A DNA stretch of 64,000 nucleotides from an uncultured virus (IMG/VR IMGVR_UViG_3300021079_000006) (lineage: Duplodnaviria > Heunggongvirae > Uroviricota > Caudoviricetes): positions 1 through 64,000 of the IMG/VR virus record IMGVR_UViG_3300021079_000006. The stretch is one strand, 5' to 3'. The translations under genes were made by a program, and so were the position numbers. This document shows, one piece after another, positions 729 through 63,268 of this stretch; positions within the stretch are counted from its first letter, which is position 1, and each line of letters opens with the position of its first letter. The notes below the pieces were generated by a model that searched no databases, was not told where the DNA came from, and was given only the letters and a program-made list of their open reading frames with translations.

Positions 729-1993
729 TCGTTAAACACGCTGAGGTTGAGCTTCTCCATTTCCTTGATCTGCTCTCGCACCTGCTCAATGGCAGAGCTT
801 TTTGACTCGAGGTAGTAACCTTCAACCTGCTCTGCGTTCTCTAAAGCGTGCGCAAACGCGTCTTCCATTGTGTCGCCCAGGCCGATAACAGCGCCTATCT
901 CCGGCAGCCCACAGTCCTGGGGGATGCAATAAAAGCCGTCCTTGTTCTTGTAAACGTTCCGGAGCTTAACAAAATCCCGGATCTCGTCGGGGAATTTGAC
1001 CTTCTGCCAATTCTGGTCCGCCCAGGACGAGTGGAGCATGATCTCGGCGCCATAAATGGCCGTCGGCTCAGGATCAACCACAACGCCGTTCGCTCCGTAC
1101 CACATACACTCTGCCAGGTTGGAATACTGCTCCTGGTAGAGCTCGTTTGGAGGACTCGGAGCCCTGGCGCAGAAATCGATCATGTAGGGATCCATGTCTT
1201 TCCCGATCCGGATCTCGGTCGAGAAAAAGCCGCGGTATCCGTAAGCCTCGAAAACCGGCTTCATCGCCTCATTAAAGCGAGTTAAAGGTTCCGGAAGGTC
1301 GGCGTAGTTTTTGAAGACGGAGGCGAACCCGCAATCCTTGATCTCCAGGCCGGAGATGAGCGTATTCGGAAACTGGCCGTCGATTGTCCAGGCATCTGTC
1401 CCAAACTCAACGCGGTCGGGAAGGTCTTCCTCGACAATAAATTTGAGGTCATGCTTGAGCGGCCCGAGCTTGTACTCGACCTCGTCCAGTTTTGGCTCCA
1501 CCTCTTCATACGAGGGCGCCTTGAATGTTTCAAAAGTGCCGCGGTACTTGTCGATCTTGACGTGAACGTCGTCGTGCTCCTTCAGGAAGGAGCGCAGGTT
1601 GTCCATGCCAGTGATTTCCCAATACTTGCCAACAGGCAGGCCGGTGCGCTCGATAATGCGCTTCATGCCGGCGCGGTCCAGTTCCATTTCCTCGCCCAGG
1701 CGAGAACCCCAGACAACCTTACCCATCCGGTCCAGCATTCGCTGCTCCCATCCAAAATAGATATCGGGGAAGCAGAAGAAATCGACGTCGTCAAAATGCG
1801 GGCCGTAGATGGAATCAACCAGCTCCAGGCCGTCCAACCCCTTGCCGATCCAGGCGGTGTTCAGCTTGGCAAAGGCGCACTCCCAGGGGCAATAATAGTA
1901 AACCTTTTTGAAGGTCTTGCTTAGTTTTAGCGCAAGTTCAACAAACAGGCCGTTGTCTACGACAAGACAGACTACGTCTTTTGGGTCTTTCAT
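725..1993 (-). CDS. ATP-grasp ligase, PurD (phosphoribosylamine-glycine ligase)-like (copy A)
   Basis: ELDRAGMK..G(LP) motif, VHVK, FIVEE, GYRGFFSTE, IDFCAR.PSP; 422 aa is typical of the PurD-like fold. Confidence 0.75.
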   Translation of the reverse strand: MKDPKDVVCLVVDNGLFVELALKLSKTFKKVYYYCPWECAFAKLNTAWIGKGLDGLELVDSIYGPHFDDVDFFCFPDIYFGWEQRMLDRMGKVVWGSRLGEEMELDRAGMKRIIERTGLPVGKYWEITGMDNLRSFLKEHDDVHVKIDKYRGTFETFKAPSYEEVEPKLDEVEYKLGPLKHDLKFIVEEDLPDRVEFGTDAWTIDGQFPNTLISGLEIKDCGFASVFKNYADLPEPLTRFNEAMKPVFEAYGYRGFFSTEIRIGKDMDPYMIDFCARAPSPPNELYQEQYSNLAECMWYGANGVVVDPEPTAIYGAEIMLHSSWADQNWQKVKFPDEIRDFVKLRNVYKNKDGFYCIPQDCGLPEIGAVIGLGDTMEDAFAHALENAEQVEGYYLESKSSAIEQVREQIKEMEKLNLSVFNE

Positions 1994-2259
1994 TTGCAGT
2001 TCCAGCGTTTAAGTGATGCGGCTTTACGGGTTGGGCGACCCTTTTCGTCTTTCATCGGACCGGGATTGCCGCTCATTCTAGCGCAGAATGAAGCCTTTCT
2101 GCCAGCGTCGGCCTTGGTCTTTGGGTGCGGCGCAGGCGCCTTCAAGTTGCTGCCAGTTGCCGCGTTGATTTTGGCTCGGCCCTTGGCTGTTAGCCCGGCG
2201 CCCCGGGAAACAGGAAGCTTATCTCCCTTCGATACAGATAGTTTTGGTGTTTTTGGCAT
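1990..2259 (-). CDS. Small basic phage protein, DUF6321-like
   Basis: GLTAKGRAK..GSNLKAP...RKASFCARMSG...SLKRWNC pattern; K/R-rich. Confidence 0.65.
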   Translation of the reverse strand: MPKTPKLSVSKGDKLPVSRGAGLTAKGRAKINAATGSNLKAPAPHPKTKADAGRKASFCARMSGNPGPMKDEKGRPTRKAASLKRWNCK

Positions 2260-2260
2260 A

Positions 2261-5200
2261 TTATTCTTCGTCTTCTCCTTCAGCTTCTTTTCGCAGTTTT
2301 TCTGCCGCTTTGATTGCTTTTTCTTTTTCCATCAATTGCTTCATTAGCCCCTTATTGGGAGACTTAACGCCAGTGAGGTTTGCCTCATCGGCCTCGGACA
2401 AGAGTCGCACTGTTTCCCCTTTACGATCCACTTGGAACAAACCTCCAGCTTGGATGATGTCCAAAGAAAACTTGGCGGCGTCAGCGTAGTCCGCTGGCTC
2501 TGCTCCGCTCGTTGCCGCCCCGTACTTGCCAAACAATTCCTTCTCGTTAAACCACAGGGCAGCCTGCATATCGGCAATGGTAACAACAATCCCGGCTTGA
2601 GCAAGCCTAGCCTGAGCCTGCTCCATCGTTGTCTGCTGAAACGCCCGCTCGTTACTGGCCCGAGGTGCGCCAAGCGGCGTTGTGCGATCCTGCACCCAAT
2701 TCTTGGCGGCTCTTCGTAATTCGGTTTTTCCCTTGAAGCTGCCAGTTCTGAATACTTTTTCAAGGTGCTCCGCAAACTCAAGCATCGCGCCGCTGTCTTC
2801 TAGTAATTTGTGGAATTCTTTTTTCGACCATCTGGGCGCGTCTTCTCCGTAAAGGTAGGGCTCTTCAACTCCTTTTTTAATGAGCACTCGGTCGGTATAT
2901 TCCTTGCCTTTTTTGAGCGCCTGATTTCTGTTGTATTCCTCAATCAACGAGTCTTGAAACCGCTCAAATTGATGCCCTTCCTTGAGAGGATCATACTTAA
3001 ATGAGCGACCAAGAATTCGATTCCACGTTCTGGTATACCAAAGGTCGGCGGTTAGCGTTGAGTAGTCGCCGTGGAGGTTATTAATGAAAGATCCGATCTT
3101 TGGCCCAAAGACCATAAACCCGGTCACCATTTGATTTTTGCCGCCCTCAACAGACAGCGGCTCCCCGTTGTAATACAGGGAGGTGTCTTGCTTCAGATTC
3201 TTGTTCCAATTTGCAACAGTGTCCGTTTTGAACAAAAGGGCTCGGAGCTGACTTGGGGTATGCCTTGTCAGCAACTCGTGCAATTTCAGTATGTTGTTTT
3301 CAATCGCGGCAGTTTTATCGCCGAATGTGCCATGCAGTGCGGTGACAATTTCTGGAAGGGTTTTGCCATTTTCTAACATTAGCGTTACCCGAGTTGCCAT
3401 TTTGCCATTCTCGAAGACGTCGTTGCCCTGAGACGCAATCCCGAGAACCGCATCGAAAACAAGGCTCTTGTCTGCGTCGTGCTGGGGAGACCCAACCTCG
3501 AGCCACGGAAAGAGTTGCGAGTACATTCCCTTCATCCGCTTCAGGGCCGCGTCGTACCATCCAATTGCGTTTGGAGACTTTGGATTCAGCGCGGCCCTCG
3601 CCATGTGCTGCTGAACCTCGTCGGCCACAACTGACGAAATGATATCCATCGCCCTCGGGCTATAGTCTCCGGGCAGGATTACCCCATCACTGGCCGCTCG
3701 ATTCTGCAACGCATGAATCATGTCCGGGACGGCTGTCTCCCGCTTGCCTGCAAGCGTGTACGTTGACCTCACGGGCAGGATTTCGGTTCCTGCCAACAGC
3801 GGACTGGCGCTCCGGGCCATTGGGTCTACCGGGTACAGCTTGTCCTTTATGTACTTGGCGTCGGAGTCACTGAGTCCGTACCGCTTGGCGTAGAGGGCTG
3901 GGTCGAAGATGTAGCCTTGCGCGGCTGCTGCCTTGGCGTAGTCGATAAGAAGGCTATCGATACTTCGTTGTAGTAAGGACTGTCCACCGGAAGTGGCTTG
4001 AAGCCAAACCGGGAGAACTCTCTGGTTGTCTCTTCCCTTGAATATTTTTTCAGTTTCATAAAGCTCTGAGGCTACAATTGTTTCGTATGATTGATCGATT
4101 GATGCTGATTTTTGGATTTCACTGAGCTTGCTGGCAAAGTCCTCGGTCCCAAAGTTGAGTGCCTTGATGCCCTTGCCGTCCGTTGTCGTAGAAACGTCTA
4201 CGCCAACTTCTCTCGCTTTGTCAAAAGCCAACTTCAACTGGTCGTCGGTGAGCTTTGTAGAATGGATCAGGTATGCTGCCTGAGTGCCTTCTTTAAGGTC
4301 AATTGACGGCTTGTAGGTGATGCCAGCGTCTTGAGCAAAAGCAAGAGTTAGAAGCTGAGTGATTTGCTTTGCCTTGTCAAACGTAAGTTCAGGATGAACC
4401 AAATCAAAAGATGGTTCTACCTTCCCCTGCCACGTTCCTGCAATCGGCCTAATCTCCAGACCATCAAGGCCAAAGAAGTCTTTTAGTATCCCGTTGAAGC
4501 CATCGGATTTCAGAATGTCATGCACTGAGTCTCCAAGCTCTGCCATGCTGCGAATTCCAAGCGGATTGGCGGTGAATGGAGCAGGGGTTGCCTTTAGCGA
4601 CACCTCTTCAAACGACCTGTTTAGCTTTTTGACTTGAGCTTTCCACGCGGCGTCTTCCGGGCTCATGTTCTGCATCTTTTCCGGGAACTGCGAGCGCATC
4701 TCTTCGATCTGGGTGTCGAGCGCGGCAACCTTTTCCGCATAGGCGGCCTTCTTTGCTTCAAATTCCGCCGTTTTTTCAGGCTTCTTTGCGTTCTTAGCCG
4801 CCTCGTCTGCCTTGGCAAGCAACTCAAGTTGGCGTTGTTTTTTAAGCTGCAATTCGCCCCATGTTTCAACTGCTGCCTTTTGGCCGGAAACCGTTTTAAG
4901 CTGATCTCTTAGCTCGGATGCCGTTCTGTAGGTGTAACCGTGCTCACCGGGCTTGGCTCCAATCACAACGCTGAACATCCCGCGTTCATCAGTGATGGTT
5001 TTGGGAAGCGGAGCAATTGACGCAAGAGCAGGCAGACGCTCTTCCTCTTTTGGCTCTATTTTTATGCCTTCCAGCGCCCCGGGAATATTTTCGTTGTCCG
5101 GCATAAACCGCACCTGAGCACCTTCAAGGGCTCCCGAGGCGCTGGGGTCGGTTAGGAATGGTTTAATTTCGTCGTATTTTTCACGACTGATGGAGCCATT

Positions 5201-8200
5201 CACCATTTTAGTAAACAGCTTTCGATTAAACGCCTTGATGTCATTGGCATCCGATGCATTTGCATAACGCATTGGCACATCGATGACAAAAATGGCCTCC
5301 TTTCCATCGGGGCCAAGCCCCGAAACCACATTTCCTTCGTGGGCATCTCGCAAAAATGTTTTTGCCTTTGGATTGTAGAATTCAAAAAGATTGCCTCTTA
5401 CTATCCTGAAAAAGTTTCTTTGATTTAAATATGAATCAATTTGGTTAATTGATAACGGGTCTAAAATTTTGACGTAAGGCTGCTCCGTGACAACATACGC
5501 ACCGGGATCAGATCCCGTTACCCTTCCAGTAACAAGGTCTGAAAAATTTCCCTGAACATTGGCTTCCGATTCCTTTGCTTGATCGTGGATTCCCTTAACG
5601 GTGATTTTTGTTTCAGGGAAAAACTCATTGTGCAGTCGAATTCGGTCGAAATAATCACCCCAGTTTTCTTCAAACATGGGAATATTTGTCCGCTTTTCAA
5701 CTTTGCCATTTTCATTTCCAAGAATGACTTGATGCTCGGCCCCTGATTTATACCCCGACGCCCTCCACCTCTCGAGAAAGTCCCGATGATCCAAAAGCGC
5801 CCCGTGCTGGCGTGCTGCATCAACTAGACGGGTGTCTTGCGCTCGCTTTGCTGCCTCTGACGCACGGCGACTTTCAGTTTCTCCTCGAACCTGTTCTGAT
5901 TCTGAATCCTTTCCTCTAACGGAACGCTCGAAAACACTTCCGAGATTCTCACTAGGTGCTCTCGACCCTTGTTTGTTTTGGCTGCTTCCTGCTCTACTAA
6001 CCTCTCCCTCTCTGCTCTGTCTGGAATTAAGTATTCGTTCATATTCTTCTTTTTCGGCAAAATCGCCAGATTCTTTAGGATTACCATCAGGCATAAATCG
6101 AGCCTGACCGCCTTCCACAGAGGAGCGCATCTCGGGAGTAATGGCGACTTTCCAGATTTTGGGATTTTCTCCAATCTCTACAACTTCTCCACCTTCTCCG
6201 CGTCCCCGGTTGTTAAGCGCAACAACTGCGTGAGAACGGTTGGTGAACGTCATTGTTGGAGCGATATTTGGATTTCCTTGAATGACGTACTCTTTCTTGC
6301 CTTCAACCTCACCCGTTTCAACTTTAGCACCCCATTGCTTGACGTACTTGCCAATTTCATTTGGTAGGATTTTGTCGTAAAAGCCTGTCATGCCTTCGCC
6401 GCCAATATCAAGGTCTAATCCGTCAGCTTTTGCGTATGCCGTAACCGGATCTGATTGAGAATTGAGGTCAGCAATAAGCTTTTCTGCAAGTGGCTTCCCT
6501 ATTGTGTCAGCTACCTCCTGAGCAGACAGTCCGGGTTTATTTATTACTGATACAGGAAGGTTTGATCCATCTGTGTTTTGGTATGCACTGACATGATACT
6601 TTCCGTCACCGTCATTTATTAGGTCAATGGCTGAGACATGTTTACTTAGGGAATACCGATCAGCTTGCGCTTCTCCTCCGGTCCAGCCAATCCAATTCTT
6701 GCCGTCAGCAACAGCTTTTTGAAGTGCGTGCTTGAATAGTTGAATGGGCCAATCTTTGCGGAATGGTGCGTCGGCAACGCCGTCTTGACGCATTGCTCCT
6801 GCGTTCATTAAGGCTGTCCATTCCTTGCGCTCTTCAGGTGTTGCCGCTTGCCCTTTTGCTTCAATTTCACGCACCCTATTATAATCGCGAAGTTGTTCAT
6901 TTTTGTACCCTCTTTTCCTAGCCGCCTGATGCAGATCAGATTGCAACTCTTCAATCAGCCTGCCAGTTCCAAAGTCTTGAGTGCGCATATGCGCAACATA
7001 GTTTGGAACGTCTGGAAAGTGGCTTGAGCGAAACTCTCCAACTCCAACAACATCGCTTTCTCCCCTGCCATCAATTCTGGCTTGATCTAATGTGTCATAA
7101 GTGCCTTGTTCTCCATCAATAAATTCAACATCAAAAGATCCATCGTTTAATTTTTTAAATGAAGCAATTGGGTCAATTTCTGTTTTAGACGGCATTCTAA
7201 GAACAACCTCTTCGTAGTTTGTGCCGCCGGGAAGCTTGTATTTGGAGTATTGCGTCTCGTCTTCTCCGTACTCAGAATCGATTTGGTTGGTCTCAGAAAC
7301 GAACTCTTCCGCTTCTGGTCTACTCATCCCAAACATTTCCATTGCAGATTTCTCTGCTTCCTCAATTGTGTTAAATTTTGCAGCGCCTCCCCACTCTTCA
7401 GCTTCAGAGTAGAACTCGCCTTCAAAGGACTTTGCTTCTCGCATCCTCTGCGTCTCAAACTTTGCAACGTAACCGTCTTTCAAGAACTGCTTAACGTCAT
7501 CTTTCGTGACATATCCTTTCTCCGCCTGCGCTGCGTCAATAAACTGATTGATGCCGCTCCATTTCATTTCGTCAGGCTTCACGCCACTACCCTTCTGCGG
7601 GTCCAGAATGCCCCTTATTTGCTCCGCACTGGCCCGATTAGGCATCTTGTTTAATAGAACCCGTCCAGCCTTGCTGTAGAACCCGGGGGCGACCTTTGTA
7701 GGGTCTTCCTCACGCTCTGGCATGAAGCGAATGCCTGACGGGATTTTGCTAGATGCCCACATGCTCCCGCCTTGCGGATCTGGTCTGCCAGTTTCCGTAT
7801 CAAATAATTTTTCTCTTCGTAATGTAGCCTGTTTTGATATTGGCTCTCCGTATAGTTTTGTTGCACCAATGCTTTGAGCATATTTTGCAATTTCTCGGTA
7901 CAAAGCTTCTCCGTATCCTTGTTTTTCAAACCCGGAAGAATTGGCAGACAGCACCACCTTCAGGAGCTCTGGGTCATACGGATCTCTAGTGACAGTTGCG
8001 CTAGCCGCAACCTTGTTAGACATTTCCGGGTAAATGTAAATGTGCGTGTCTGGGTCTTCTTCAATTTCCTCAACTCTAGATTTGTATTTTGGCAACCTTG
8101 CCTTCATTACGTTCAGCTCTTCTTGAGTTGGTACGCGACGGTATTCATCTTCCAATTTCTCAGGTATAAACCGGACCTGCGCTTCTGCTGGCTGAACCGT

Positions 8201-11200
8201 TGCCTTGATTTCACCAGTGCCTTTTGGGTCGTACTTAGCAGAGACTGATCCCAAACCTTTTAGGATACTACCACCGAGCGCAGGACGCTGTTCTTCTTTA
8301 GCCTCCTGTTCGGGCATAAACCGGGCCTTGTACGGGATCGGGTACTTATACTCCGTGTTTGCGTTCTCTTCGGCAGCAGTGTGCGAATCAAGGCGGAATG
8401 ATTTGATGATCTGGTCAAAGCTAGACTGTTTATCGAGCTTGCGTTCGGATCGGCTAAACTTGTTCCGGTCTAGGTCTGGAATAGACTCAACGTCGGGCAC
8501 ATTTGGATTTGGTGCGCCGAGCATCTTTTCGTAAATGGTTCGCTTGAGCTTTGCAACATTTGGGTCTGCATCGAGTCCCTGCCAGCCCGGGACACTTGCG
8601 TCGGGGTTCGCAAGGTTCGGAAGCAGCACCGTTCTAAACTCGTTCCAAAATTTTTGTGTGTCGCCGCCCCAAGGCTCAAACACTCCCTTGGCATATTTCT
8701 CATAAAGCCCAACCTTCCTACGAAGGTCGCTAATATCCCAAGCAGTTGTGTAAAAATTGCCAGCCTTTGAGAGGTGCAATTGCAATGGGACGATCTGCCG
8801 AATCTTTGGAGAAAACGCCTGATAGTTGCCTTTGTCATTCAACCGGGAGGCGTAATCGATATCAAGCACCGTCCCGTCGCCCCGAGTCATTAGGTCGTCG
8901 TACTTAAACAACAGTTCCTTCATTGAGGCTGGAACAATACTTTCAGGAAGTGCAGCAATTGCCGCACGCTGCGCTGGAGTCATTTTTCCAGTGTAGTGCA
9001 GGTCTTCATCATCTTTTCCCTGCCCGCCTTTGATCGCCCGGAACCGTCCCAGCTCAGATGGATCTCCAGCGTTATCGATGGCATCACGGACCATTTGCAC
9101 CCGGCGCTTAATATGCGCTACGGTTTCCTTGTTTTTGCGTTCTTTTGGCTTCCCGGTGGCCTCGTCGTAAGCAATCTGACGTTCTACTTGTACTCGCCCA
9201 CCGACCGGGACTTCGAGTCCAACTAATTCAGGATGTAATTCTCCAAATCCCCGTTCCTTGTTTGGAACATTATCCCCAGTCGTATCGTCTTGGTGATAAA
9301 TCCAACTACCTTCAGATGCGTTGTTGTCAGTTAGGTTAACCGTCTGCACTACCTTACCATCTGCGTCCGTAACTACAGCCACTGGAATCGTCTCAAATTT
9401 CCCTGTGTCCTTAAAATACTTGTTAAGCAACTCTTTTGAGTTTTTTACGTCTTTTGGCGTAATGGGCGCAGCCACCGCTTCTCCCGGCTCTGCGTCAGTA
9501 AAGTCGCCGTCGTACTTCTTCATCTCCCGCTCGACGTTGCGTATCGCACGCATTACCTCAGGGCTGTACGTTGCGCCAACAAGCCCAGAAGTCCACTGTT
9601 TGTACACCGCTGGCCCTGCAATTGCGTACAAGTGATTCAACGCAGATTTGACGTTGTTGCTACTGACACGAGAAGCCAACCAGTTAATTCCTCGCTGCGC
9701 TGGAGACTCTGGGTCGCCAAAGAACCTTCCTGCGTGAGCTTCTGCGAGAGTTTCCTCCCGCATCAATTCAACAATCTTGTTCTTGTTAAAGTCGTTTGCC
9801 GCTTCATCCCAAACTCCAGCGGCTTCAGCGTAATCCTGAACTTGTTCTGCTGTCTTTCCTTCTAAATATTTTTTGTAAAATTTGCCAAACAGATCATCCC
9901 GGGACATTCCGGGCTCCGCAGGAGTGATTTGTCGCACATTGCCATTTTCATCAACAGCCTCTGTGCCGAATATTTTGTTGAACAAAGGTGCGATCCGCTT
10001 GCGGTATTCGTCCTTGCCAAACAAGCCGTGCCCAACAACTTCGTGAGCAAGGACGTTTGAGATAGCCTCCCCAGAAAGCTCTGCCTTTTTTAAAGCGTTT
10101 TCAACATTCACAAACACCGTATCTTTGGCAGGGTCCATCGTAAACCCGTCCTTGGCGGTGCCTTTCCCAATCATAATGCCGTCAGCGGTTGGATTCTTTT
10201 CTAACGCCTGCTCAATAGTCATTGGTGCTCCAACCCCATTGAAATTAGGGTTTTCCGTAATCATCTTGTCGATAATTTGGCTAGATGTAAGCAACTCAAT
10301 GTTCATGTTGCTGTTAGGAGTCAGCACCCCGTTTATGAGGTTTGACACTTTCCCTAGCGACAATTTAATGCCATCCTCGAACGCTTGCCGGGCTTCCGGG
10401 GGCGCAACTATGTTTTCCTGATGGAGTCGATAAGCAAACTCGTAATCTGCTTTGGCCTTAGCCGCTTCAGGTGTATTTGCCCCGTTCACCATTTCGGCAA
10501 AATGCGTTTTCTGAGCCCGATCAAGGCGTTTTTCAGACTGCTTGATGACCTTGTCCCAGTTCAAATTTGTGACATTTTCTCGAGATTCTGGGCTTAACCC
10601 AAGCATAACCCTTTGAGCCTGTCGCATCTCTGCGTCTCGGTTCATTTTGTTGCGAATCGGATCATTCCCTACTAATCCTCCGAGAACCTGCCCGTGAATA
10701 AATCCATAGGTCGCAAACTCAGCCCACATTTGTGCAAACTCTTGAGCGTCCTTGTCTTCAAGTACTCCCATTGCAACCATCATTGGCAGCATTGACACGT
10801 TGTGTTGCACAAAGACGTTTGCGTTTTTTTCAATAAAATCCAACGCTTTGCCGCCACCAGCTTTTTGCGACCAGTTCAAAAATCGTTGCACCTCAGGAGA
10901 TGCTGATTCCATTTTTTCTAACGCCTCAAAGCGGCCCAATTCAGCGCCGGATAACCTTCCAGCTTTAAGTAGCTGCTGCCCAAGGCGAGGCGCAGCCGCA
11001 ATCGCCTTACCAGCAAGCTGAATTCCAAGCCCAGTTCCTGCGCCTTTTAACGCCCCGGCCAGCGGATCATCAGACGCCAATGCACCAGCGCCAGCGCCAA
11101 GTAGAGTCGACCCGGCATATTTTACAGGTTTTGGAAGGCTTTCAAAGGCTGTTTTAGACCGATCAATGGTGTCTGCAATGTTGCCAAGTGGCTTTTCGAG

Positions 11201-12667
11201 CCACCCGGGCTGCTCTCGGGCAATTGCCTCCGCTTCACGCTGCGCTTGCAGTGCCGCGCTATCAGCGGCGTACATAACATTGCGAGCCTCACCAGTCTTT
11301 CCAGCCGCTCTCAACCCTCGACCTATTTGCTGACCTAACATGCTCAAATCTCGCACAACTGCCCCGCCCAACCCAAACACGTTTAATGGCGATGTCATGG
11401 CAATTGCGCCAACTTGTTCAGGGTCTTCCCGTAGACGATTGGCTTCTTTTATTTGAGCTTGCACCCCAGTTTCAGCGGCTGCTTCTGCTTGCAATCGACG
11501 GTTAGCCCTCGCTGCTTCAATATTGCCTCCAAATCCAAAAACAGCGTCTTCTGCTGGGGGCATCAACTTTTCAACAACATCAACCCAGTATTTTTTAACG
11601 GCAGGATCTTGCCACAGGTCATCAATTGTTCTGGCCAAAACAGCGGGATTTTTTTCCCTCTGCATGTGGTCGATATACTTTGCATTCATCCGAGTTGCAA
11701 AGTTCTTCCTAGCTTGATCCATTGCTGGAGCAGCCGCAGCTTCACGCAATGCAGCTTCTTGCTCCATAGAGATGGCAGGAGCAATTGATGGGTCTGCTAG
11801 AGTCCCTTCCGCAGTGGCTTTAGCAATGCCAACCTTAGCCTTGTCCCAAAGCATAGCTCTACCTTCAGAAAAATCCTTTGTTGCCTTTAAAAGGTCTTCT
11901 CTAGCCATCAAAAGGGCATCGCCAAACACCCGAGCGGACCGATACGTTTTGTCTCGGAGCGACAATTCAGCGTCTCGGATTTGCTGTTCGTTTAGTCCCT
12001 TTTTTTGCTCTTCAGTGAGCGTTTTGCCTTTCCCGAAATCTTCAGGGCTACCGACATACACTGCGCCTGTAAGAGCATCCTTTGCTAGCCTGCCAGCGCC
12101 AGCAGCAAGAGGAGGCAAAGACGCCAACATTCCAACCCCGGCCTTCCCTGCGTCTGCAATTAAATCAAACGCACTTGTATCCTTGTTCCACCTGTAATCG
12201 AACAGAGACTGCAACTGCACAGGGTTTTCGGCCATGTTGTACCAAGGAACTGTCTTGTGTAGCTCCTCAAGGTCGTGCGGGTCGGTGATTCCTTTGAACA
12301 CCGTTTCCGTAATCCCCTTGCGGGTGTTAGGATCAGTGATTCCAGCGTATGCATTAAACTTGCCTGTTGGGCCAACCGGGACTGGGGCAAACTGCCCAGA
12401 GCCGAGTGCTCCGCTGCCAATCAACGAAGACTGTTCTGGAGGCGCAGTGCTGCCGACCATTTCGGGACGAAACATCTCGCCGCCACCAGACAGCGTGCCA
12501 CCAGAAGTCTGCATTCCGGGGGATTCCCCCTTGAATGCAGCTAGAATTTCTTCATCAGAAATGCCTTTTGCCTCTTCCTTGCTGTAAATAGGCTGACTGA
12601 CAGATGGCTGTTCTCCCTTAAACGCAGCCAGAATTTCTTCGTCTGAAATCTTTGGAGTTTCAGCCAT
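2261..12667 (-). CDS. Giant polyvalent internal virion/ejection protein (zincin-like peptidase, GNAT, LPD-type domain, polyvalent kinase-like domain, C-terminal glycosylase-like domain)
   Basis: 3468-aa ORF after the ejection genes; HEVVGH..EETLAE; FEKQGYGEALY; IEELQSDLHQ/GFYDKILP; GAEHQV..EQPYV..DAHEGNV..FVID; GWY..GPKIGSF..TADLWY..QAALW. Confidence 0.75.
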   Translation of the reverse strand: MAETPKISDEEILAAFKGEQPSVSQPIYSKEEAKGISDEEILAAFKGESPGMQTSGGTLSGGGEMFRPEMVGSTAPPEQSSLIGSGALGSGQFAPVPVGPTGKFNAYAGITDPNTRKGITETVFKGITDPHDLEELHKTVPWYNMAENPVQLQSLFDYRWNKDTSAFDLIADAGKAGVGMLASLPPLAAGAGRLAKDALTGAVYVGSPEDFGKGKTLTEEQKKGLNEQQIRDAELSLRDKTYRSARVFGDALLMAREDLLKATKDFSEGRAMLWDKAKVGIAKATAEGTLADPSIAPAISMEQEAALREAAAAPAMDQARKNFATRMNAKYIDHMQREKNPAVLARTIDDLWQDPAVKKYWVDVVEKLMPPAEDAVFGFGGNIEAARANRRLQAEAAAETGVQAQIKEANRLREDPEQVGAIAMTSPLNVFGLGGAVVRDLSMLGQQIGRGLRAAGKTGEARNVMYAADSAALQAQREAEAIAREQPGWLEKPLGNIADTIDRSKTAFESLPKPVKYAGSTLLGAGAGALASDDPLAGALKGAGTGLGIQLAGKAIAAAPRLGQQLLKAGRLSGAELGRFEALEKMESASPEVQRFLNWSQKAGGGKALDFIEKNANVFVQHNVSMLPMMVAMGVLEDKDAQEFAQMWAEFATYGFIHGQVLGGLVGNDPIRNKMNRDAEMRQAQRVMLGLSPESRENVTNLNWDKVIKQSEKRLDRAQKTHFAEMVNGANTPEAAKAKADYEFAYRLHQENIVAPPEARQAFEDGIKLSLGKVSNLINGVLTPNSNMNIELLTSSQIIDKMITENPNFNGVGAPMTIEQALEKNPTADGIMIGKGTAKDGFTMDPAKDTVFVNVENALKKAELSGEAISNVLAHEVVGHGLFGKDEYRKRIAPLFNKIFGTEAVDENGNVRQITPAEPGMSRDDLFGKFYKKYLEGKTAEQVQDYAEAAGVWDEAANDFNKNKIVELMREETLAEAHAGRFFGDPESPAQRGINWLASRVSSNNVKSALNHLYAIAGPAVYKQWTSGLVGATYSPEVMRAIRNVEREMKKYDGDFTDAEPGEAVAAPITPKDVKNSKELLNKYFKDTGKFETIPVAVVTDADGKVVQTVNLTDNNASEGSWIYHQDDTTGDNVPNKERGFGELHPELVGLEVPVGGRVQVERQIAYDEATGKPKERKNKETVAHIKRRVQMVRDAIDNAGDPSELGRFRAIKGGQGKDDEDLHYTGKMTPAQRAAIAALPESIVPASMKELLFKYDDLMTRGDGTVLDIDYASRLNDKGNYQAFSPKIRQIVPLQLHLSKAGNFYTTAWDISDLRRKVGLYEKYAKGVFEPWGGDTQKFWNEFRTVLLPNLANPDASVPGWQGLDADPNVAKLKRTIYEKMLGAPNPNVPDVESIPDLDRNKFSRSERKLDKQSSFDQIIKSFRLDSHTAAEENANTEYKYPIPYKARFMPEQEAKEEQRPALGGSILKGLGSVSAKYDPKGTGEIKATVQPAEAQVRFIPEKLEDEYRRVPTQEELNVMKARLPKYKSRVEEIEEDPDTHIYIYPEMSNKVAASATVTRDPYDPELLKVVLSANSSGFEKQGYGEALYREIAKYAQSIGATKLYGEPISKQATLRREKLFDTETGRPDPQGGSMWASSKIPSGIRFMPEREEDPTKVAPGFYSKAGRVLLNKMPNRASAEQIRGILDPQKGSGVKPDEMKWSGINQFIDAAQAEKGYVTKDDVKQFLKDGYVAKFETQRMREAKSFEGEFYSEAEEWGGAAKFNTIEEAEKSAMEMFGMSRPEAEEFVSETNQIDSEYGEDETQYSKYKLPGGTNYEEVVLRMPSKTEIDPIASFKKLNDGSFDVEFIDGEQGTYDTLDQARIDGRGESDVVGVGEFRSSHFPDVPNYVAHMRTQDFGTGRLIEELQSDLHQAARKRGYKNEQLRDYNRVREIEAKGQAATPEERKEWTALMNAGAMRQDGVADAPFRKDWPIQLFKHALQKAVADGKNWIGWTGGEAQADRYSLSKHVSAIDLINDGDGKYHVSAYQNTDGSNLPVSVINKPGLSAQEVADTIGKPLAEKLIADLNSQSDPVTAYAKADGLDLDIGGEGMTGFYDKILPNEIGKYVKQWGAKVETGEVEGKKEYVIQGNPNIAPTMTFTNRSHAVVALNNRGRGEGGEVVEIGENPKIWKVAITPEMRSSVEGGQARFMPDGNPKESGDFAEKEEYERILNSRQSREGEVSRAGSSQNKQGSRAPSENLGSVFERSVRGKDSESEQVRGETESRRASEAAKRAQDTRLVDAARQHGALLDHRDFLERWRASGYKSGAEHQVILGNENGKVEKRTNIPMFEENWGDYFDRIRLHNEFFPETKITVKGIHDQAKESEANVQGNFSDLVTGRVTGSDPGAYVVTEQPYVKILDPLSINQIDSYLNQRNFFRIVRGNLFEFYNPKAKTFLRDAHEGNVVSGLGPDGKEAIFVIDVPMRYANASDANDIKAFNRKLFTKMVNGSISREKYDEIKPFLTDPSASGALEGAQVRFMPDNENIPGALEGIKIEPKEEERLPALASIAPLPKTITDERGMFSVVIGAKPGEHGYTYRTASELRDQLKTVSGQKAAVETWGELQLKKQRQLELLAKADEAAKNAKKPEKTAEFEAKKAAYAEKVAALDTQIEEMRSQFPEKMQNMSPEDAAWKAQVKKLNRSFEEVSLKATPAPFTANPLGIRSMAELGDSVHDILKSDGFNGILKDFFGLDGLEIRPIAGTWQGKVEPSFDLVHPELTFDKAKQITQLLTLAFAQDAGITYKPSIDLKEGTQAAYLIHSTKLTDDQLKLAFDKAREVGVDVSTTTDGKGIKALNFGTEDFASKLSEIQKSASIDQSYETIVASELYETEKIFKGRDNQRVLPVWLQATSGGQSLLQRSIDSLLIDYAKAAAAQGYIFDPALYAKRYGLSDSDAKYIKDKLYPVDPMARSASPLLAGTEILPVRSTYTLAGKRETAVPDMIHALQNRAASDGVILPGDYSPRAMDIISSVVADEVQQHMARAALNPKSPNAIGWYDAALKRMKGMYSQLFPWLEVGSPQHDADKSLVFDAVLGIASQGNDVFENGKMATRVTLMLENGKTLPEIVTALHGTFGDKTAAIENNILKLHELLTRHTPSQLRALLFKTDTVANWNKNLKQDTSLYYNGEPLSVEGGKNQMVTGFMVFGPKIGSFINNLHGDYSTLTADLWYTRTWNRILGRSFKYDPLKEGHQFERFQDSLIEEYNRNQALKKGKEYTDRVLIKKGVEEPYLYGEDAPRWSKKEFHKLLEDSGAMLEFAEHLEKVFRTGSFKGKTELRRAAKNWVQDRTTPLGAPRASNERAFQQTTMEQAQARLAQAGIVVTIADMQAALWFNEKELFGKYGAATSGAEPADYADAAKFSLDIIQAGGLFQVDRKGETVRLLSEADEANLTGVKSPNKGLMKQLMEKEKAIKAAEKLRKEAEGEDEE

Positions 12668-24392: not shown

Positions 24393-25103
24393 TTACCATT
24401 GAAGTGGCGTCATGTACAACCAATTCATTCTGGTACATCTGCCCTCGTGCCGAATGTAATCTAAGACGTAATCAGGCAACACTATGCCTTCCGGGAGCCT
24501 TGGAATTGTCTTATTCCAGTCGTCTACAATGTTGATGATCCTGTGGGTTCGCTGAAATCTAGCTATCAGCTCGTTTGTGACGCCCATCCTAAAACAATCG
24601 TGCATTTCTACAGTGATTGTAGCCCTCGATAAGTCCGGGGCTTCTGCCGGGTTTAGTAAGTCAGCCTCAGCTCCTTCTATATCCACAAAGACCCAAGGGT
24701 TATTGCTCCCGGCAAGAGCCGCCTGAAGGCTCTGATTATTGAACTCGTTCCGAAACGTGTAATCTGAAATCCCATTCAAGTTACACGACAGCTTGACCTG
24801 TTCCAAGCAGGCGGAATCGATGTCCACCATGAGCAAGTTTGTGCTTGGGCTTCTGAGTTTCACCCCGACTCCATAATAGCCGTCCCCACAACCAATATTG
24901 ATAAAAAGGTCGTGGTTTTTAGCCAGTTCGGAATTAATGCTTCTGTGGATTGGCTGCTCAAATGTCCCCAAAAGTTTCACAACGGAATGACCAACTCCGA
25001 AATGAGCAATGTCACTCATCTGCATCCCCATAAATGGCCCAGAGATTGCCTTTCCAAGGCAGGCGGCGTGAATCTTGCGCTCAATGTCTTCCATATTATT
25101 CAA
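24393..25103 (-). CDS. SAM-dependent methyltransferase (FkbM-like)
   Basis: NIGCGDGYY motif I, VDIEGAE, VEMHD. Confidence 0.8.
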   Translation of the reverse strand: MNNMEDIERKIHAACLGKAISGPFMGMQMSDIAHFGVGHSVVKLLGTFEQPIHRSINSELAKNHDLFINIGCGDGYYGVGVKLRSPSTNLLMVDIDSACLEQVKLSCNLNGISDYTFRNEFNNQSLQAALAGSNNPWVFVDIEGAEADLLNPAEAPDLSRATITVEMHDCFRMGVTNELIARFQRTHRIINIVDDWNKTIPRLPEGIVLPDYVLDYIRHEGRCTRMNWLYMTPLQW

Positions 25104-25989
25104 TTAATTTTACCCAAGGTTCGATGCGGTTACTCCAGTCAAAATTTTCCCTAGCGTACTGCTGAGACCGCTCGCAGGTTTCTTTGTAGATTATCGGGTC
25201 TTGGTGCGCCAGCAAAGCAGCTCTAGCGTCTTTTACCCACTCATCTTCCGGGAGACGGCAATTGATGCCAAAATTCCCGTCAAAGTAGCCAACCCCGGCG
25301 GAGCACAAAACCAATCGGCCAGCAGCCGCCGCTTCCATCATGGGCAGTCCGCAGGCTTCATAGCTAGAGGGCAACAAAAGAGCGTCTATCGTCTGGTAGA
25401 ACGAAGCCATGCACAAATGATGCATGAAATTGTGGTCTTTAAACTCAAGCGGCAACCCATCCAGCACCCTTGGGATAAGTTCTTTTCGTTTGCAGTCAAC
25501 TCCATCAGGACGGTTATGGAACAGCGCCCCGGCGTACCCGGCAATCTTCACTGCATTGCCTATAGGCGAGTAGAAAAAGTCAAAATCAATGCCGTTGAGT
25601 ACGACATCTGGAATTCGCGTCAGCCCAAACTGCTGACTAGACGATACCAGCGACTCGTGGACAGCTCCGTAGGCTTTCAGGCCGTCAAACATCTCAGGAC
25701 CAGCAGCCATGACTGCTTTGTGGATGTCGTCGTCGGCGTGAGCAACCGTAATGATCCGCTCTTTTGGAATTCCAAAAGTCTGCATCAAAACAGGAACCTG
25801 CGGAGGGTTTGTGTACCAGTACTCAAACTTTTGCCGCAAGTACTCTATCTCAAGAGCACTGTAGCTCAGATTCCAGTCGAGAATGTGAGAGTAAATACCA
25901 TGCTCCCACAGCCTTTTAATGAGGGCATTGTGGATTGTTCCAAACGCCCAAGCGTTCCGCGTAAAAAACAGGACAGAACGGCTATACAT
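25096..25989 (-). CDS. Glycosyltransferase, GT-B fold (GT4-like)
   Basis: NGID, LLPSSYEACGLPMMEAAAAG (Ex7E), FDW. Confidence 0.85.
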   Translation of the reverse strand: MYSRSVLFFTRNAWAFGTIHNALIKRLWEHGIYSHILDWNLSYSALEIEYLRQKFEYWYTNPPQVPVLMQTFGIPKERIITVAHADDDIHKAVMAAGPEMFDGLKAYGAVHESLVSSSQQFGLTRIPDVVLNGIDFDFFYSPIGNAVKIAGYAGALFHNRPDGVDCKRKELIPRVLDGLPLEFKDHNFMHHLCMASFYQTIDALLLPSSYEACGLPMMEAAAAGRLVLCSAGVGYFDGNFGINCRLPEDEWVKDARAALLAHQDPIIYKETCERSQQYARENFDWSNRIEPWVKLIE

Positions 25990-27124
25990 ACAGGCTCTTG
26001 TAATCCAACCCGAGCGAAGTCAATGGTCTGTCGTGCAACTCGTACCAGCCTTTGCCGTGCATTACGTCCGAGAAATCGGCAAACGCCCGTTCAAACTTGG
26101 GGCGCACCGCATCGAGCGAGAAATTGTCCTGAGCAAAACGAATCATTCGGTCCCGGTTAATAGTTGGAACAAGCCTAATGGCCCGGAGGATATCTCCCAT
26201 TGTGTTGCACCTAAATCCATTCACGCCATCAACGATATATTCTGTCATTGCCCCCGAGTCAGTACAGACCGGGACACAGCCCGACAGCATTGATTCAACG
26301 GCAGTTCCGCCAAACGGCTCCCAGTATGTTGAGAGGAGGAATGAAAACGATGCCTCCCCTAGTAGGCGCTTTCGCGTCTCAAGGTCTGCGTATCCAATGT
26401 ACTCGACGTGATCTGGCCATTTCTCGTACCCCACGTCCCGTGGGCCTCCCTGCCCGGCCACGACCAGTTTAATGCCAGCCCGGAACGAAGCCTCAATTGC
26501 GATATCAACGCCTTTATTTGGGCCGATGCGGCCCAGCGCAACGGCATAAGGCTGACGCTCGCTTTTTGCCTCAAAGTCTCGAAGATCAAAATAGTTTGGG
26601 ACAACACGTCCATACCATTCTGGGTTGCAATAAGCGACAGTTTGCGTCCCGGCAAAAGCCGCCTTGAGCGGATAGGACTCGTAGCATCTAAATTGAGCAA
26701 AAGCGTACCCAGAGCCAATCCCGGGTTCCACGATGATCAGATCGCCGTCTTTGTTTGCGTCATGCGCGGACTGAGCCGTGCCGCCCCAAAAGCACAAAAC
26801 AAAGTCTCCCCGTTGCTTTCGAGCGTAGATCTCTTTACCAGCGTTTTCGTTAAACGTCTTGTGGGCGTGGTCGTCGATTGAATGTTTAAACAACCCCTTT
26901 TTCCAATCGTACCCCCCGTAAGCCTTTTTGAGAGTTTCGTTGTCGGTGACCGTCACCTGCTCGTCGGCATCCGTCACAGAGTCTTTGTGGCCGTAGTGAA
27001 TTGTCTTATAGCCACGTCCCTTGAACATGGTCAGAAACTTACGCACCTTTTGGGTAAAGGCGCACGCTACATAGTCAGCGTTGGAAATTGTATGTGGAAG
27101 TCCAAGGCAATGTATCTGAGTCAT
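25982..27124 (-). CDS. Glycosyltransferase, GT-B fold (GT4-like)
   Basis: LGRIGPNKG, EPFGGTAVESMLSG (Ex7E), DGVNGF. Confidence 0.9.
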   Translation of the reverse strand: MTQIHCLGLPHTISNADYVACAFTQKVRKFLTMFKGRGYKTIHYGHKDSVTDADEQVTVTDNETLKKAYGGYDWKKGLFKHSIDDHAHKTFNENAGKEIYARKQRGDFVLCFWGGTAQSAHDANKDGDLIIVEPGIGSGYAFAQFRCYESYPLKAAFAGTQTVAYCNPEWYGRVVPNYFDLRDFEAKSERQPYAVALGRIGPNKGVDIAIEASFRAGIKLVVAGQGGPRDVGYEKWPDHVEYIGYADLETRKRLLGEASFSFLLSTYWEPFGGTAVESMLSGCVPVCTDSGAMTEYIVDGVNGFRCNTMGDILRAIRLVPTINRDRMIRFAQDNFSLDAVRPKFERAFADFSDVMHGKGWYELHDRPLTSLGLDYKSLYV

Positions 27125-36416: not shown

Positions 36417-37400
36417 TTAGTTTGTGAAGACACGGAACCCAAAGCCTGCTTCTTGACGAGCCGGGTCGGAATAGCTGCGGATCATCGTGCGCTGCGAATT
36501 TGCGTCTTGTAACCAACAGCCGCCACGGACTCGGCGACCGTAAATAGGAGCGGCGTCGTCAAAGCACCATTCGTTGACATTTCCGCCCATATCGTAGAGC
36601 GATAACTCATTTGGCGTTTTGCCACGCACTGCTTGAGCGCCTTGGCCATAGGTCAAGTTGTCTCGAGACCATGCAACAGCAGTTGACGTGTTTGACCCCG
36701 GATAGGTGTACGTTCCGCTGGAAACCCCGCCGAACGCCGCCCACTCCCATTCTTTTTCACCCGGGAGACGATAGCCAGTAGCGGCTGCGTCCACGGAAGG
36801 AACAACATCTCCGACGGTGTAAATCACCTTGGCCGTGAGTGTGCCTGTCGCCGTTGCCGTCCCGCTTACAACCGTCCTGTATGTGAACGCCGTTGGGCTA
36901 GTAACGGTGACGCTACGGACTAGGTTGTACCCAGCCGGGGTTGCGCCTGCGACCTGCACCCAGTTACCCGTGGAAAGCTTGTGCCCTAGTGGGACAATAG
37001 CGGTTGCAACAGTGCCTGTGCTCGTTAGTGACCCAACACTCAGGATGGTGGTGTAATAAACCGGGGTGAGTGTTCCTTGATTTAATGTAGCGGCATTGCA
37101 CCATTTCAAGGCGTCGTACCAGTTTAGCGTTTCAACCGGGGCAGTGGCAGAATTGCCAGACCCGGAAAGCTGAAGGTCAAAGCCGTTGGCGTTAGCAAAC
37201 GTCCGTTGAGCCTGAAACTCAGTCCAGTTCACTTCGGTTTCGCCAGCCTTAAAAGCAGTTACAGCCTGCCCCTTAAAATTAGTGGCGGCACTCATCGAAC
37301 TAGTCCCGGTGACGGTGACCAGCGTATTCCAAACAGCTTCGCTCGTGGTAACGCCAAGAGCGGAGATTGCAACGATCAGAATTCCCTTTAGGAACTTCAT
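36417..37400 (-). CDS. FGE-sulfatase (C-type lectin) fold protein with signal peptide and an inserted beta domain
   Basis: TEV.W, PVE.LNWYDA..WCN, YRLP.E.EWEWAA.GG, PNELSLYDMGGNVNEWC, RGG.W, GFRV. Confidence 0.85.
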   Translation of the reverse strand: MKFLKGILIVAISALGVTTSEAVWNTLVTVTGTSSMSAATNFKGQAVTAFKAGETEVNWTEFQAQRTFANANGFDLQLSGSGNSATAPVETLNWYDALKWCNAATLNQGTLTPVYYTTILSVGSLTSTGTVATAIVPLGHKLSTGNWVQVAGATPAGYNLVRSVTVTSPTAFTYRTVVSGTATATGTLTAKVIYTVGDVVPSVDAAATGYRLPGEKEWEWAAFGGVSSGTYTYPGSNTSTAVAWSRDNLTYGQGAQAVRGKTPNELSLYDMGGNVNEWCFDDAAPIYGRRVRGGCWLQDANSQRTMIRSYSDPARQEAGFGFRVFTN

Positions 37401-62557: not shown

Positions 62558-63268
62558 TTAGAACGTCCTAGTCTCCCACAACTTCCGAGCGCCCGCAACA
62601 TCAATGCTTGACTTCCCGATGCGGTCATTCACTGCGTTATGCAGACAAACTCCCCACGCAAAGAATTCACCAAAGTCAGCAGGGTTAAGTGCCATCCATT
62701 CTTTAAGGTGTGCCTCGCACGGGCAACCGTCAAACGGGAGAGAAGCCACCCAAGCCTCAAGCCAGTATCGCATGTCACCAAACGGGATGCATGTGGCATC
62801 AGCCCGGAGGCTATAGAGGTGCAGCTCCGCCCAGTACCGGGCTCCCTGCATAAGAATGCGGCTCTTTTGAAGTTCGCTACGCTGCTCAATCCGTTCAACC
62901 TCATTGCCGACATCAAACACCCATTTGTCGTGCGTTTCCCAGTCCGTGGACGTGGCTATTGCGGCTTCCCGCTCCAATGCCATTGCTACGACGTGCTGAC
63001 GGTGATACGGGGCAGCAGGGTCGTCCCCGGGCTCCTCGAGCTTGGGGTTGTCGGTGTCAAACTTGGTCACCTGCTCATCGGTAATGCCGTCGCGTTTGCA
63101 CAAAAACGCTTCGACCATCTCGTGGATTGCCACGAGCAGGACCGAAACGTCCCGGCCACCGTACTCTGGGACCTTGAGCATTAGTGCTCCATCGGCCAAC
63201 CATTCCCAGTCGCCAGCCGTTGGGTAACGCATTGCGCTGGGGTCTACAGTCTTAATTTCAATCCTCAT
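62558..63268 (-). CDS. HExxE domain + Erv1/Alr-like domain fusion (copy B)
   Basis: Colinear paralogue of 27..728; IHEMVEA, WAELHLY, LPFDGCPCEAH, LHNAVNDRIGK. Confidence 0.7.
   Translation of the reverse strand: MRIEIKTVDPSAMRYPTAGDWEWLADGALMLKVPEYGGRDVSVLLVAIHEMVEAFLCKRDGITDEQVTKFDTDNPKLEEPGDDPAAPYHRQHVVAMALEREAAIATSTDWETHDKWVFDVGNEVERIEQRSELQKSRILMQGARYWAELHLYSLRADATCIPFGDMRYWLEAWVASLPFDGCPCEAHLKEWMALNPADFGEFFAWGVCLHNAVNDRIGKSSIDVAGARKLWETRTF

Follow-up and report, generated by a model that had tools for sequence, protein, structure and literature searches.

A lineage-specific peptide at the internal borders of a giant phage polyvalent protein: a candidate processing site

A window of uncultured virus DNA, comprising 64,000 of the 66,054 bases of record IMGVR_UViG_3300021079_000006 (rated complete), contains one giant open reading frame (ORF), in the product of which a five-residue peptide, RF(M/I)P(E/D), stands behind every module except the last. 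This junction tag is conserved in related proteins, uniform within a protein, different between lineages and, where it has been modelled, placed in predicted coil. RFMP(E/D) is this lineage's form of a family-wide inter-module signal with the pattern [R/Q/K/L]-[F/Y]-[M/L/A/S]-[P/A] and the core F-M-P. The reading ranked first, which we hold tentatively, is that the tag is a proteolytic processing site read by a metallopeptidase built into the same chain; the cutting, the position of the bond and the cutter are all inferred from sequence.

The giant ORF and the tags, which a pattern search finds at residues 1449, 1499, 1647, 2190 and 2520, are as follows.

2261..12667, minus strand: giant ORF, 3,468 residues, 382 kDa, with polyvalent-type domains among virion genes
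8309..8323, minus strand: junction tag 1, RFMPE, residues 1449-1453
8159..8173, minus strand: junction tag 2, RFIPE, residues 1499-1503
7715..7729, minus strand: junction tag 3, RFMPE, residues 1647-1651
6086..6100, minus strand: junction tag 4, RFMPD, residues 2190-2194
5096..5110, minus strand: junction tag 5, RFMPD, residues 2520-2524

A preliminary description of this DNA had reported five copies, and all five are present; the coordinates given there span the five-residue core and not the seven-letter strings quoted. When the protein was shuffled 2,000 times, the mean was 0.011 copies and the maximum 1, against 5 observed. A six-frame search of the window found no further RF[MILV]P[ED], and the tripeptide FMP is absent from its other 61 ORFs (16,063 residues; 0.63 expected). 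The five copies use three Arg codons (CGG three times, CGC and CGA), two Phe codons (TTT four times and TTC) and four Pro codons (CCT twice, CCC, CCA and CCG). Conservation within this gene is therefore at the level of the peptide, which supports the earlier suggestion that selection acts there. Tags occupy 5 of 5 internal borders, and none is found at the protein's own C-terminus. Each lies directly behind a module, at the start of a charged, variable linker whose first 20 residues are rich in Glu, Asp, Lys and Pro.

The tags delimit the following parts of the chain.

8324..12667, minus strand: constant N-terminal part ("chassis"), residues 1-1448; cluster 1 in 22 of 34 motif-cut proteins
8174..8311, minus strand: spacer of ~50 residues between tags 1 and 2; cluster 9, 50-52 residues, in P0001, P0003, P0007 and P0009
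7730..8161, minus strand: GNAT cassette, residues 1503-1646; sub-threshold in Pfam, with the cassette cluster passing in relatives
6101..7717, minus strand: conserved 540-residue module; alignment A2 of 51 sequences, GNAT-like core in the model
5111..6088, minus strand: kinase cassette, with Kinase-PolyVal at 5276-5848
2264..5098, minus strand: C-terminal module, 945 residues, with no family match (Pfam and PDB negative) and no tag at its own C-terminus

The N-terminal part ends before junction 1 in a conserved tail, YKYPIPYKA, in which Y1446 and K1447 are invariant in alignment A1. The domain identities first proposed for the remaining parts fared unequally. The kinase-like domain between tags 4 and 5 is Kinase-PolyVal (PF18762; residues 2274-2464, E = 3.6e-16, 60 bits against a cut-off of 27). 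For the GNAT domain placed between tags 2 and 3, the window's copy falls short (PF00583; E = 0.016, 15.9 bits against 20.7), but members of its cassette cluster clear the cut-off in two relatives (P0008, E = 3.8e-8, 34 bits; P0012, E = 2.3e-6, 28.3 bits). What had been called an LPD-type domain between tags 3 and 4 is a real and conserved module, but it matches no Pfam LPD family, nor anything in Pfam, PHROG, NCBIfam or PDB sequences. Its AlphaFold2 model has a mean predicted local distance difference test score (pLDDT) of 73.6, and all 50 matches listed in a wide structure search are GNAT-type acetyltransferases or their relatives (Z 7.7-9.2; ~105-150 residues aligned over model residues 105-550), including the AtaT/TacT toxins and AcrVA5. 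As a lead from the model, the module may be a much-inserted acetyltransferase. The glycosylase-like region expected after tag 5 found no match in Pfam or in PDB sequences.

The giant product is a phage polyvalent protein. It holds at least two unrelated effector-type domains (Kinase-PolyVal, the GNAT cassette, the GNAT-like 540-residue module and a zincin-like region), and it is phage-encoded in a virion context, on a 66-kb virus record with tail-fibre and endolysin genes as neighbours. Searched as a whole against PHROGs and NCBIfam, it matches 0 families; comparison with a protein atlas gave unnamed clusters only, all below 0.9. GenBank phages contain no match to its N-terminal part and two weak matches to the 540-residue module.

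The association of tags with module borders holds in relatives as well as in the window, as the preliminary description had supposed for this protein. A search with residues 1400-2600 returned 97 proteins of 2,000-5,900 residues, and two viral-contig scans added 70 and 79 loci. RF[MILV]P occurs at 137 sites in 98 proteins, at least twice in 34 of them, and Met is the commonest third residue (119/137 sites). When these 34 proteins were cut at the tag and the pieces clustered, a constant N-terminal piece of ~1,450 residues was followed by cassettes that vary in order, number and content: GNAT (~150 residues), the 540-residue module, ART-PolyVal, PBECR5 and several without an identity. Variable cargo between the motif sites, which had been named as something to look for in homologues, is thus present. 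The core F-M-P tag stands behind every internal cassette. Residues upstream of it are the conserved C-terminal tail of the given module, residues downstream belong to whichever module follows, and the same terminal tag is shared by unrelated folds: GNAT, kinase, ART, PBECR5 and the N-terminal part. Alignments with homologues also tend to end at these points. Of 279 ends of BLASTP high-scoring segment pairs in residues 1300-2700, 97 are no more than 5 residues away from a tag and 186 no more than 15, where a uniform spread predicts 3.9% and 11%; these ends are mutually non-independent, and the border effect is large nonetheless.

At the level of single residues, the tag appears in the alignment as a conserved island inside a variable linker. 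Across 51 diverse 540-residue modules, the Phe, Met and Pro are present in 45, 43 and 51 sequences at the upstream junction (tag 3) and in 49, 40 and 48 at the downstream junction (tag 4), and the flanking columns have entropies of 2.5-3.4 bits and many gaps. The AlphaFold2 model, covering residues 1630-2215 and hence tags 3 and 4, has a confident core whose last confident helix ends at E2185; pLDDT drops below 50 at the two termini alone (model residues 1-24 and 559-586; around tag 4, from Q2188 on), and it is there that both tags fall. These two tags are accordingly predicted to lie in low-confidence coil outside the fold. Motifs buried inside folded domains had been named at the outset as a finding that would speak against the proposal, and for the two modelled tags the opposite placement was obtained.

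Short linear motifs usually appear as conserved islands in disordered linkers, and the tag could be one that is never cleaved: a docking or handling signal borne by each module for head packing, tail threading, or the recruitment of a chaperone or of a host or phage partner. This is a possible reading, of lesser probability than processing. It fares less well at the ends of chains, where the last module of the window protein is untagged and terminal modules mostly lose the tag. Where the 540-residue module is the last domain, F[MLAS][PA] is kept in 1 of 15 tails and the aromatic residue in 5 of 15 (9 of the 15 come from one clade); in internal tails the figures are 43/47 and 47/47. This loss fits a function between modules better than a per-module tag. 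Further, no partner for such a signal is known, and the 5-kDa spacer bounded by two tags has no clear docking role. One specific linear motif was considered and rejected, namely the beta-clamp-binding motif, which has the form Q-x-x-hydrophobic-hydrophobic; Gln occupies position -2 in only 52 of the 137 sites.

The tag differs between lineages. The FMP core reaches well past the window's clade (MR-FMP-E, LQ-FMP-A, PK-FMP), and other lineages carry, at homologous tails: (R/L)FMAE, RFAGEPGEK, RFAPE, RFSP, RFSL, RFQLSEDAF, (R/L)YSQFG, (R/L)FSRA, FSNR, YQLK and SMAAP, each repeated three to seven times per protein; QFMPA is a further such form. The near-constant feature is a large hydrophobic residue, mostly Phe or Tyr, after Arg, Gln, Lys, Leu or Met. 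The tails of the 540-residue module and of ART can both be anchored in 25 distinct proteins, and in 22 of these the two junctions agree in the pair of residues that follows the aromatic (permutation mean 12.6, maximum 18 in 2,000), an agreement that relatedness inflates; the rare types MA, SQ, AA and QL all agree between both junctions.

Two natural recombinants indicate which part of the protein the tag type accompanies. In L006, three downstream genes are 100% and the C-terminal module 95% identical to those of the window, the N-terminal part is ~30% identical and the upstream genes differ; the tag is FMAE. In L031 (P0006), the C-terminal module is 91% and the N-terminal part ~30% identical, and RFAGEPGEK stands at two junctions where the window protein has RFMPD. 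High identity to the window begins in both cases 28-31 residues past R2520, so that tag and linker stay with the upstream partner. Tags have changed in concert while flanking modules remained 43-91% identical. In the full set of pairs, a major switch of type (FMP, FMA, FAG) with cargo at least 60% identical goes with ~25-30% N-terminal identity. Where the N-terminal parts are at least 60% identical, tags vary only within F-x-P, FAP versus YAA being the one exception. Judged from these comparisons, tag type follows the N-terminal part and the upstream genome, not the cargo. A reader of the tag would therefore belong with either the N-terminal part or the upstream genome inherited along with it, the two being inseparable here. 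Such concerted change fits any co-evolving reader, protease or not, and so is also compatible with an uncleaved linear motif.

The alternative that nothing reads the tag is rather improbable. Under it, the peptide would cap each module structurally at its C-terminus and begin the linker, and its copies would owe their likeness to shuffling of cassettes or gene conversion at module borders, as a scar or site of recombination. The 540-residue module does end in GQ-x-[L/R/Q]-F even in very distant relatives, some terminal tails retain the aromatic, and breakpoints cluster at the linkers. These linkers tolerate breaks, however, and the tag is unnecessary for them: the recent recombinants break 28-31 residues past tag 5, and the window's five copies, with their differing codons, share little DNA. 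For the same reasons the initial suggestion that the motif is a junction for cassette exchange is weak. A cap would also have to explain how one tag comes to end so many unrelated folds, why tags changed in concert beside modules that stayed 43-91% identical, and why modelled tags 3 and 4 are not packed on the fold. Codon usage in relatives gives no help to a scar. Among 109 distinct [RQK]FMP sites, TTC is used 92 times (48 expected) and CCA 79 times (57.5 expected), in sequences that are phylogenetically clustered; a junction-specific codon signal was dropped as a candidate since other conserved Phe and Pro columns of the same module are equally biased (for example F1969, TTC in 51/51).

In one clade with LQ-FMPA tags (L009, L012, L017 and L025), non-orthologous junctions within one gene share ~25 nucleotides of near-identical DNA around the tag, which is not seen in the window and suggests duplication or gene conversion of the linkers there. 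This observation counts in favour of a scar.

The candidate reader lies within the constant N-terminal part.

9485..10327, minus strand: zincin-like (MPTase-type) region, residues 781-1061, recognised by invariant residues and weak fold matches
10028-10045, minus strand: HExxxH motif, HEVVGH, within the zincin-like region
9752-9754, minus strand: candidate third ligand E972, invariant

The preliminary description had placed a zincin-like HEVVGH..E domain N-terminal to all copies of the tag. The conserved signature is there, but as HExxxH and not as HExxH, the plain form that most of the aligned relatives have at this site. Helix motif and downstream Glu, the ligand set of a zincin, are conserved: none of H875, E876, H880 and E972 varies among the 25 full-length or the 30 regional aligned relatives, and N854 and Y934 are likewise fixed in the 30 sequences. 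Structural and profile matches are weak. The model of residues 781-1061 has a mean pLDDT of 70.8, and Foldseek against PDB gave no match at E <= 0.001 for it or for the 540-residue-module model. In a wide fold search, most of the ten best matches were zincin-type, all below the tool's reliable level: the Certhrax N-terminal domain (Z 4.8), YbeY (Z 4.0) and the lethal factor catalytic domain (Z 3.9; root-mean-square deviation 4.4, 136 residues aligned). Pro-Pro endopeptidases matched at Z 3.8 (PPEP-3, 132 aligned) and Z 3.6. The window's copy matches no Pfam peptidase at E up to 5; among the relatives' regions, Peptidase_M48 is found at E <= 1 in 8 of 30 (best 5.9e-4) and SprT-like in 5 of 30. 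PDB sequence searches with the zincin region, the 540-residue module and the C-terminal module gave nothing meaningful. No other peptidase catalytic domain is found in the 61 other window ORFs with Pfam or in the 29 larger ones with PHROGs, many of these ORFs being unannotated. By sequence, the built-in zincin-like region is the only recognisable peptidase-like element of the phage. The HEXXXH variant has been described for MPTases of polyvalent proteins (PMC5512222, section 8).

The proposed processing would proceed as follows: the protein's own HExxxH zincin-like domain, as the likeliest reader, would recognise the tags; cuts at these sites would turn the 382-kDa chain into some six products, of about 158, 5.3, 16.8, 60.2, 37.1 and 105.1 kDa; and the effector modules, once separated, would act independently after packaging or ejection. 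The near-invariant aromatic residue would suit a hydrophobic P1' pocket, and a hydrophobic P1' preference is common among zincins. A short peptide at every internal border, set in a flexible linker, uniform within the protein, and changing in concert between lineages along with the non-cargo part of the genome, has the look of a site for a lineage-encoded factor. It is this four-part pattern, together with the sole recognisable peptidase being built in and a bulky residue fitting P1', that ranks built-in processing first.

Several observations weigh against that ranking. The window's zincin assignment draws on motif invariance and fold scores with Z below 5, and Pfam gives nothing. Tag type and peptidase variant do not correspond one to one: RFMP is found with HExxxH, HEAGH and HEIGH, and QFMPA with HETGH, HEMQH and HEVQH. 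Three proteins with junction tags (P0047, P0053 and P0056) have neither HExxH nor HExxxH by pattern search. As to covariation of motif and peptidase, which had been put forward as a check, the major type follows the N-terminal part and upstream genome, and the link to the peptidase variant is loose. Stand-alone proteins of the 540-residue module, which lack a peptidase, carry a tag-like NF[ML][AG] ~20 residues from the N-terminus, and no zincin motif occurs in the ORFs neighbouring their genes; this points to a reader in trans. The aromatic residue retained in 5 of 15 terminal tails implies that part of the motif may be structural for the 540-residue module. The structure model covered two tags out of five. 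Cleavage ahead of Phe would leave an N-terminal Phe, which is destabilising in bacteria under the N-end rule. Finally, according to the main text of PMC5512222, an MPTase is present in N4 vRNAP, ArdC and TraC1, which are nevertheless transferred without being cut; the packaging of MPTase-bearing proteins such as N4 vRNAP without processing also speaks for an uncleaved signal.

The rival explanations are not fully exclusive of each other, and the points just given bear in part on a second form of cleavage. The tag may be cut by a separate phage enzyme, such as a head-maturation protease, or by a host protease after ejection; this is unlikely, though less so than an unread cap. Tags in relatives without either zincin motif, and in stand-alone module proteins with none nearby, are readily accommodated, as is a tag type that tracks the entire upstream genome no less than it does the N-terminal part. 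With the aromatic at P1 and a small residue at P1', the site would match the preferences of chymotrypsin-like or ATP-dependent host proteases. Known phages also trim packaged or ejected proteins at short motifs with prohead proteases, among them T4 gp21 and phiKZ gp175; SPN3US gp245 reportedly does likewise. Such an enzyme is not apparent among the window's annotated ORFs, however, and the absence of FMP from all the others leaves the capsid and scaffold candidates without the site. A host protease would not explain a tag that changes at 91-95% identical cargo with identical downstream genes, unless the hosts differ.

It is highly improbable that the tag acts in translation, either by slowing the ribosome, as an arrest or pause peptide, to time the folding of domains, or through an internal ATG start that yields separate modules. 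The SecM arrest peptide GIRAGP has an R-x-x-P spacing to which the tag can be likened, junction 3 reading GIRFMP; Met is third in most sites, and the gene after the giant ORF begins MPK. The absence of Shine-Dalgarno sites at the junctions is uninformative on internal starts, as this phage hardly uses such sites. One of the five copies, however, has Ile (ATA), which is no start codon, and whole lineages lack Met (RFAPE, RFSP, FSRA, FQLS, YSQFG) or lack Arg or Pro (QFMPA, FMAE). A folding pause, moreover, would be expected 30-40 residues past a domain end and not on it.

A broader proposal would treat phage polyvalent proteins as genuine polyproteins governed by a cleavage code that can be read, in which the lineage's junction peptide (FMP, FMA, FAG, FSRA, YSQFG and others) co-evolves with the specificity of the built-in MPTase. 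This remains doubtful. Were it true, cassettes would be freely swappable between phages provided that the recipient's tag and linker were retained, the mature effector set of such giants would be predictable from sequence alone, and DNA phages would have their own equivalent of the polyprotein processing of RNA viruses. By analogy, the latter is the closest precedent for the tag pattern. Picornavirus 3C and potyvirus NIa cut polyproteins at short junction motifs, and the likeness extends to one chain, one protease domain, and the same motif per border, uniform in a genome and differing between lineages. The differences are that the present case involves a DNA phage, a would-be metallopeptidase, swappable anti-host effectors in place of replication proteins, and a cleavage that is proposed only. 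Prohead-protease trimming resembles it in that ejection-bound phage proteins are cut at short motifs, inside the head; there, however, the motifs are also found in capsid and scaffold proteins and the protease has a separate gene, whereas here the motif is confined to one protein and no protease gene is recognised elsewhere in the window.

The closest relatives by architecture are the phage polyvalent proteins with an MPTase hub, for which the main text of Iyer, Burroughs, Anand, de Souza and Aravind 2017 (PMC5512222) proposes that functional units are released from the chain through processing by the MPTase. Shared with the proteins of that text are the many unrelated effector domains in one giant chain, the Kinase-PolyVal, GNAT, ART-PolyVal and PBECR5 cassettes and the HEXXXH MPTase variant. 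In that main text, the terms "linker", "interdomain", "boundar" and "RFMP" occur 0 times and "cleavage site" only in a reference; here, in contrast, a concrete, conserved, lineage-varying tag is mapped to every junction. Also unlike the proteins in that text, the window's peptidase region and 540-residue module match no Pfam polyvalent family. A second comparison is phi24B gp47 (bioRxiv 10.64898/2026.04.10.717836), in the accessible text of the preprint a 2,811-residue, LPD-bearing polyvalent protein with a metallopeptidase domain, detected by proteomics in podovirus virions and proposed as an ejection protein. Both are giant polyvalent proteins with a metallopeptidase domain, a putative one in the window's case, likened by description and not by sequence; that text gives neither processing data nor a junction motif for gp47. 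From the position of its gene, and by analogy with N4 vRNAP and gp47, the window's giant protein is probably packaged and then ejected into the host with the DNA. No published description of such a junction tag, nor a named cut site, was found in the literature searched. The giant protein is an addition to the polyvalent class, and the junction tag has apparently not been in print so far.

Few of the weapons that phages and conjugative elements direct against their hosts are larger or commoner than polyvalent proteins. The tag turns the 2017 processing prediction into an exact test, in which five bonds, six fragments whose masses are known and a set of point mutants can be examined. Should cutting occur as predicted, the tag delimits effector modules yet to be identified, allows the mature protein set to be read from metagenomic sequence, and offers a route to protease-substrate co-evolution during cargo exchange. 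If the tag is instead an uncut docking signal, it points to an unrecognised step in packing or ejecting 380-kDa proteins.

Among the relatives, the cultured cyanophage Dolichospermum phage Dfl-JY45 (L153; PP438435.1, 3997-11160) encodes a 2,387-residue protein (XAI97106.1) with the same HEVVGH motif, in which GQPAFSR and GQPMFYR tails stand on either side of the 540-residue module. Junction cleavage might be testable in the laboratory with this phage. A 94,385-nucleotide viral contig (L004) carries a giant gene 100% identical to that of the window, the record of which has 66,054 nucleotides.

At the other end of the chain, the giant protein opens with an exact 13-residue duplicate, ISDEEILAAFKGE, at residues 7-19 and 36-48 (12611-12649 and 12524-12562, minus strand). 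Three distant relatives begin with triple acidic-aromatic repeats (DDPFAEF, PDLSDIFG, PDLDEAFG). The duplicated peptide may be a packaging or ejection signal.

Nearly all genes of the window are on the minus strand, and their products include collagen-like tail fibres, a GH108 endolysin, ParB, a PDDEXK_14 nuclease and glycosyltransferases. Neighbours of the giant ORF comprise tail fibres, the endolysin and the one window ORF with a weak PHROG match to an internal virion protein. Directly after it, one base past its stop, lies the DUF6321 gene that begins MPK (1990-2259, minus strand; E = 2e-23). In PHROG alignments DUF6321 is found at the C-terminus of larger proteins, and it is fused to none of the giants collected here. 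A Shine-Dalgarno-like site is absent at most gene starts, and the anti-Shine-Dalgarno duplex energy averages -2.3 kcal/mol for 30 starts, a hint that the host may use few such sites. Beside the tail-fibre genes are an FGE-sulfatase-like protein and two group-1 glycosyltransferases (36417-37400 and 25096-27124, both minus strand). Near the window ends lie two Erv1/Alr sulfhydryl-oxidase-like ORFs of 233 and 236 residues (27-728 and 62558-63268, both minus strand), which could be paralogues or reflect terminal redundancy.

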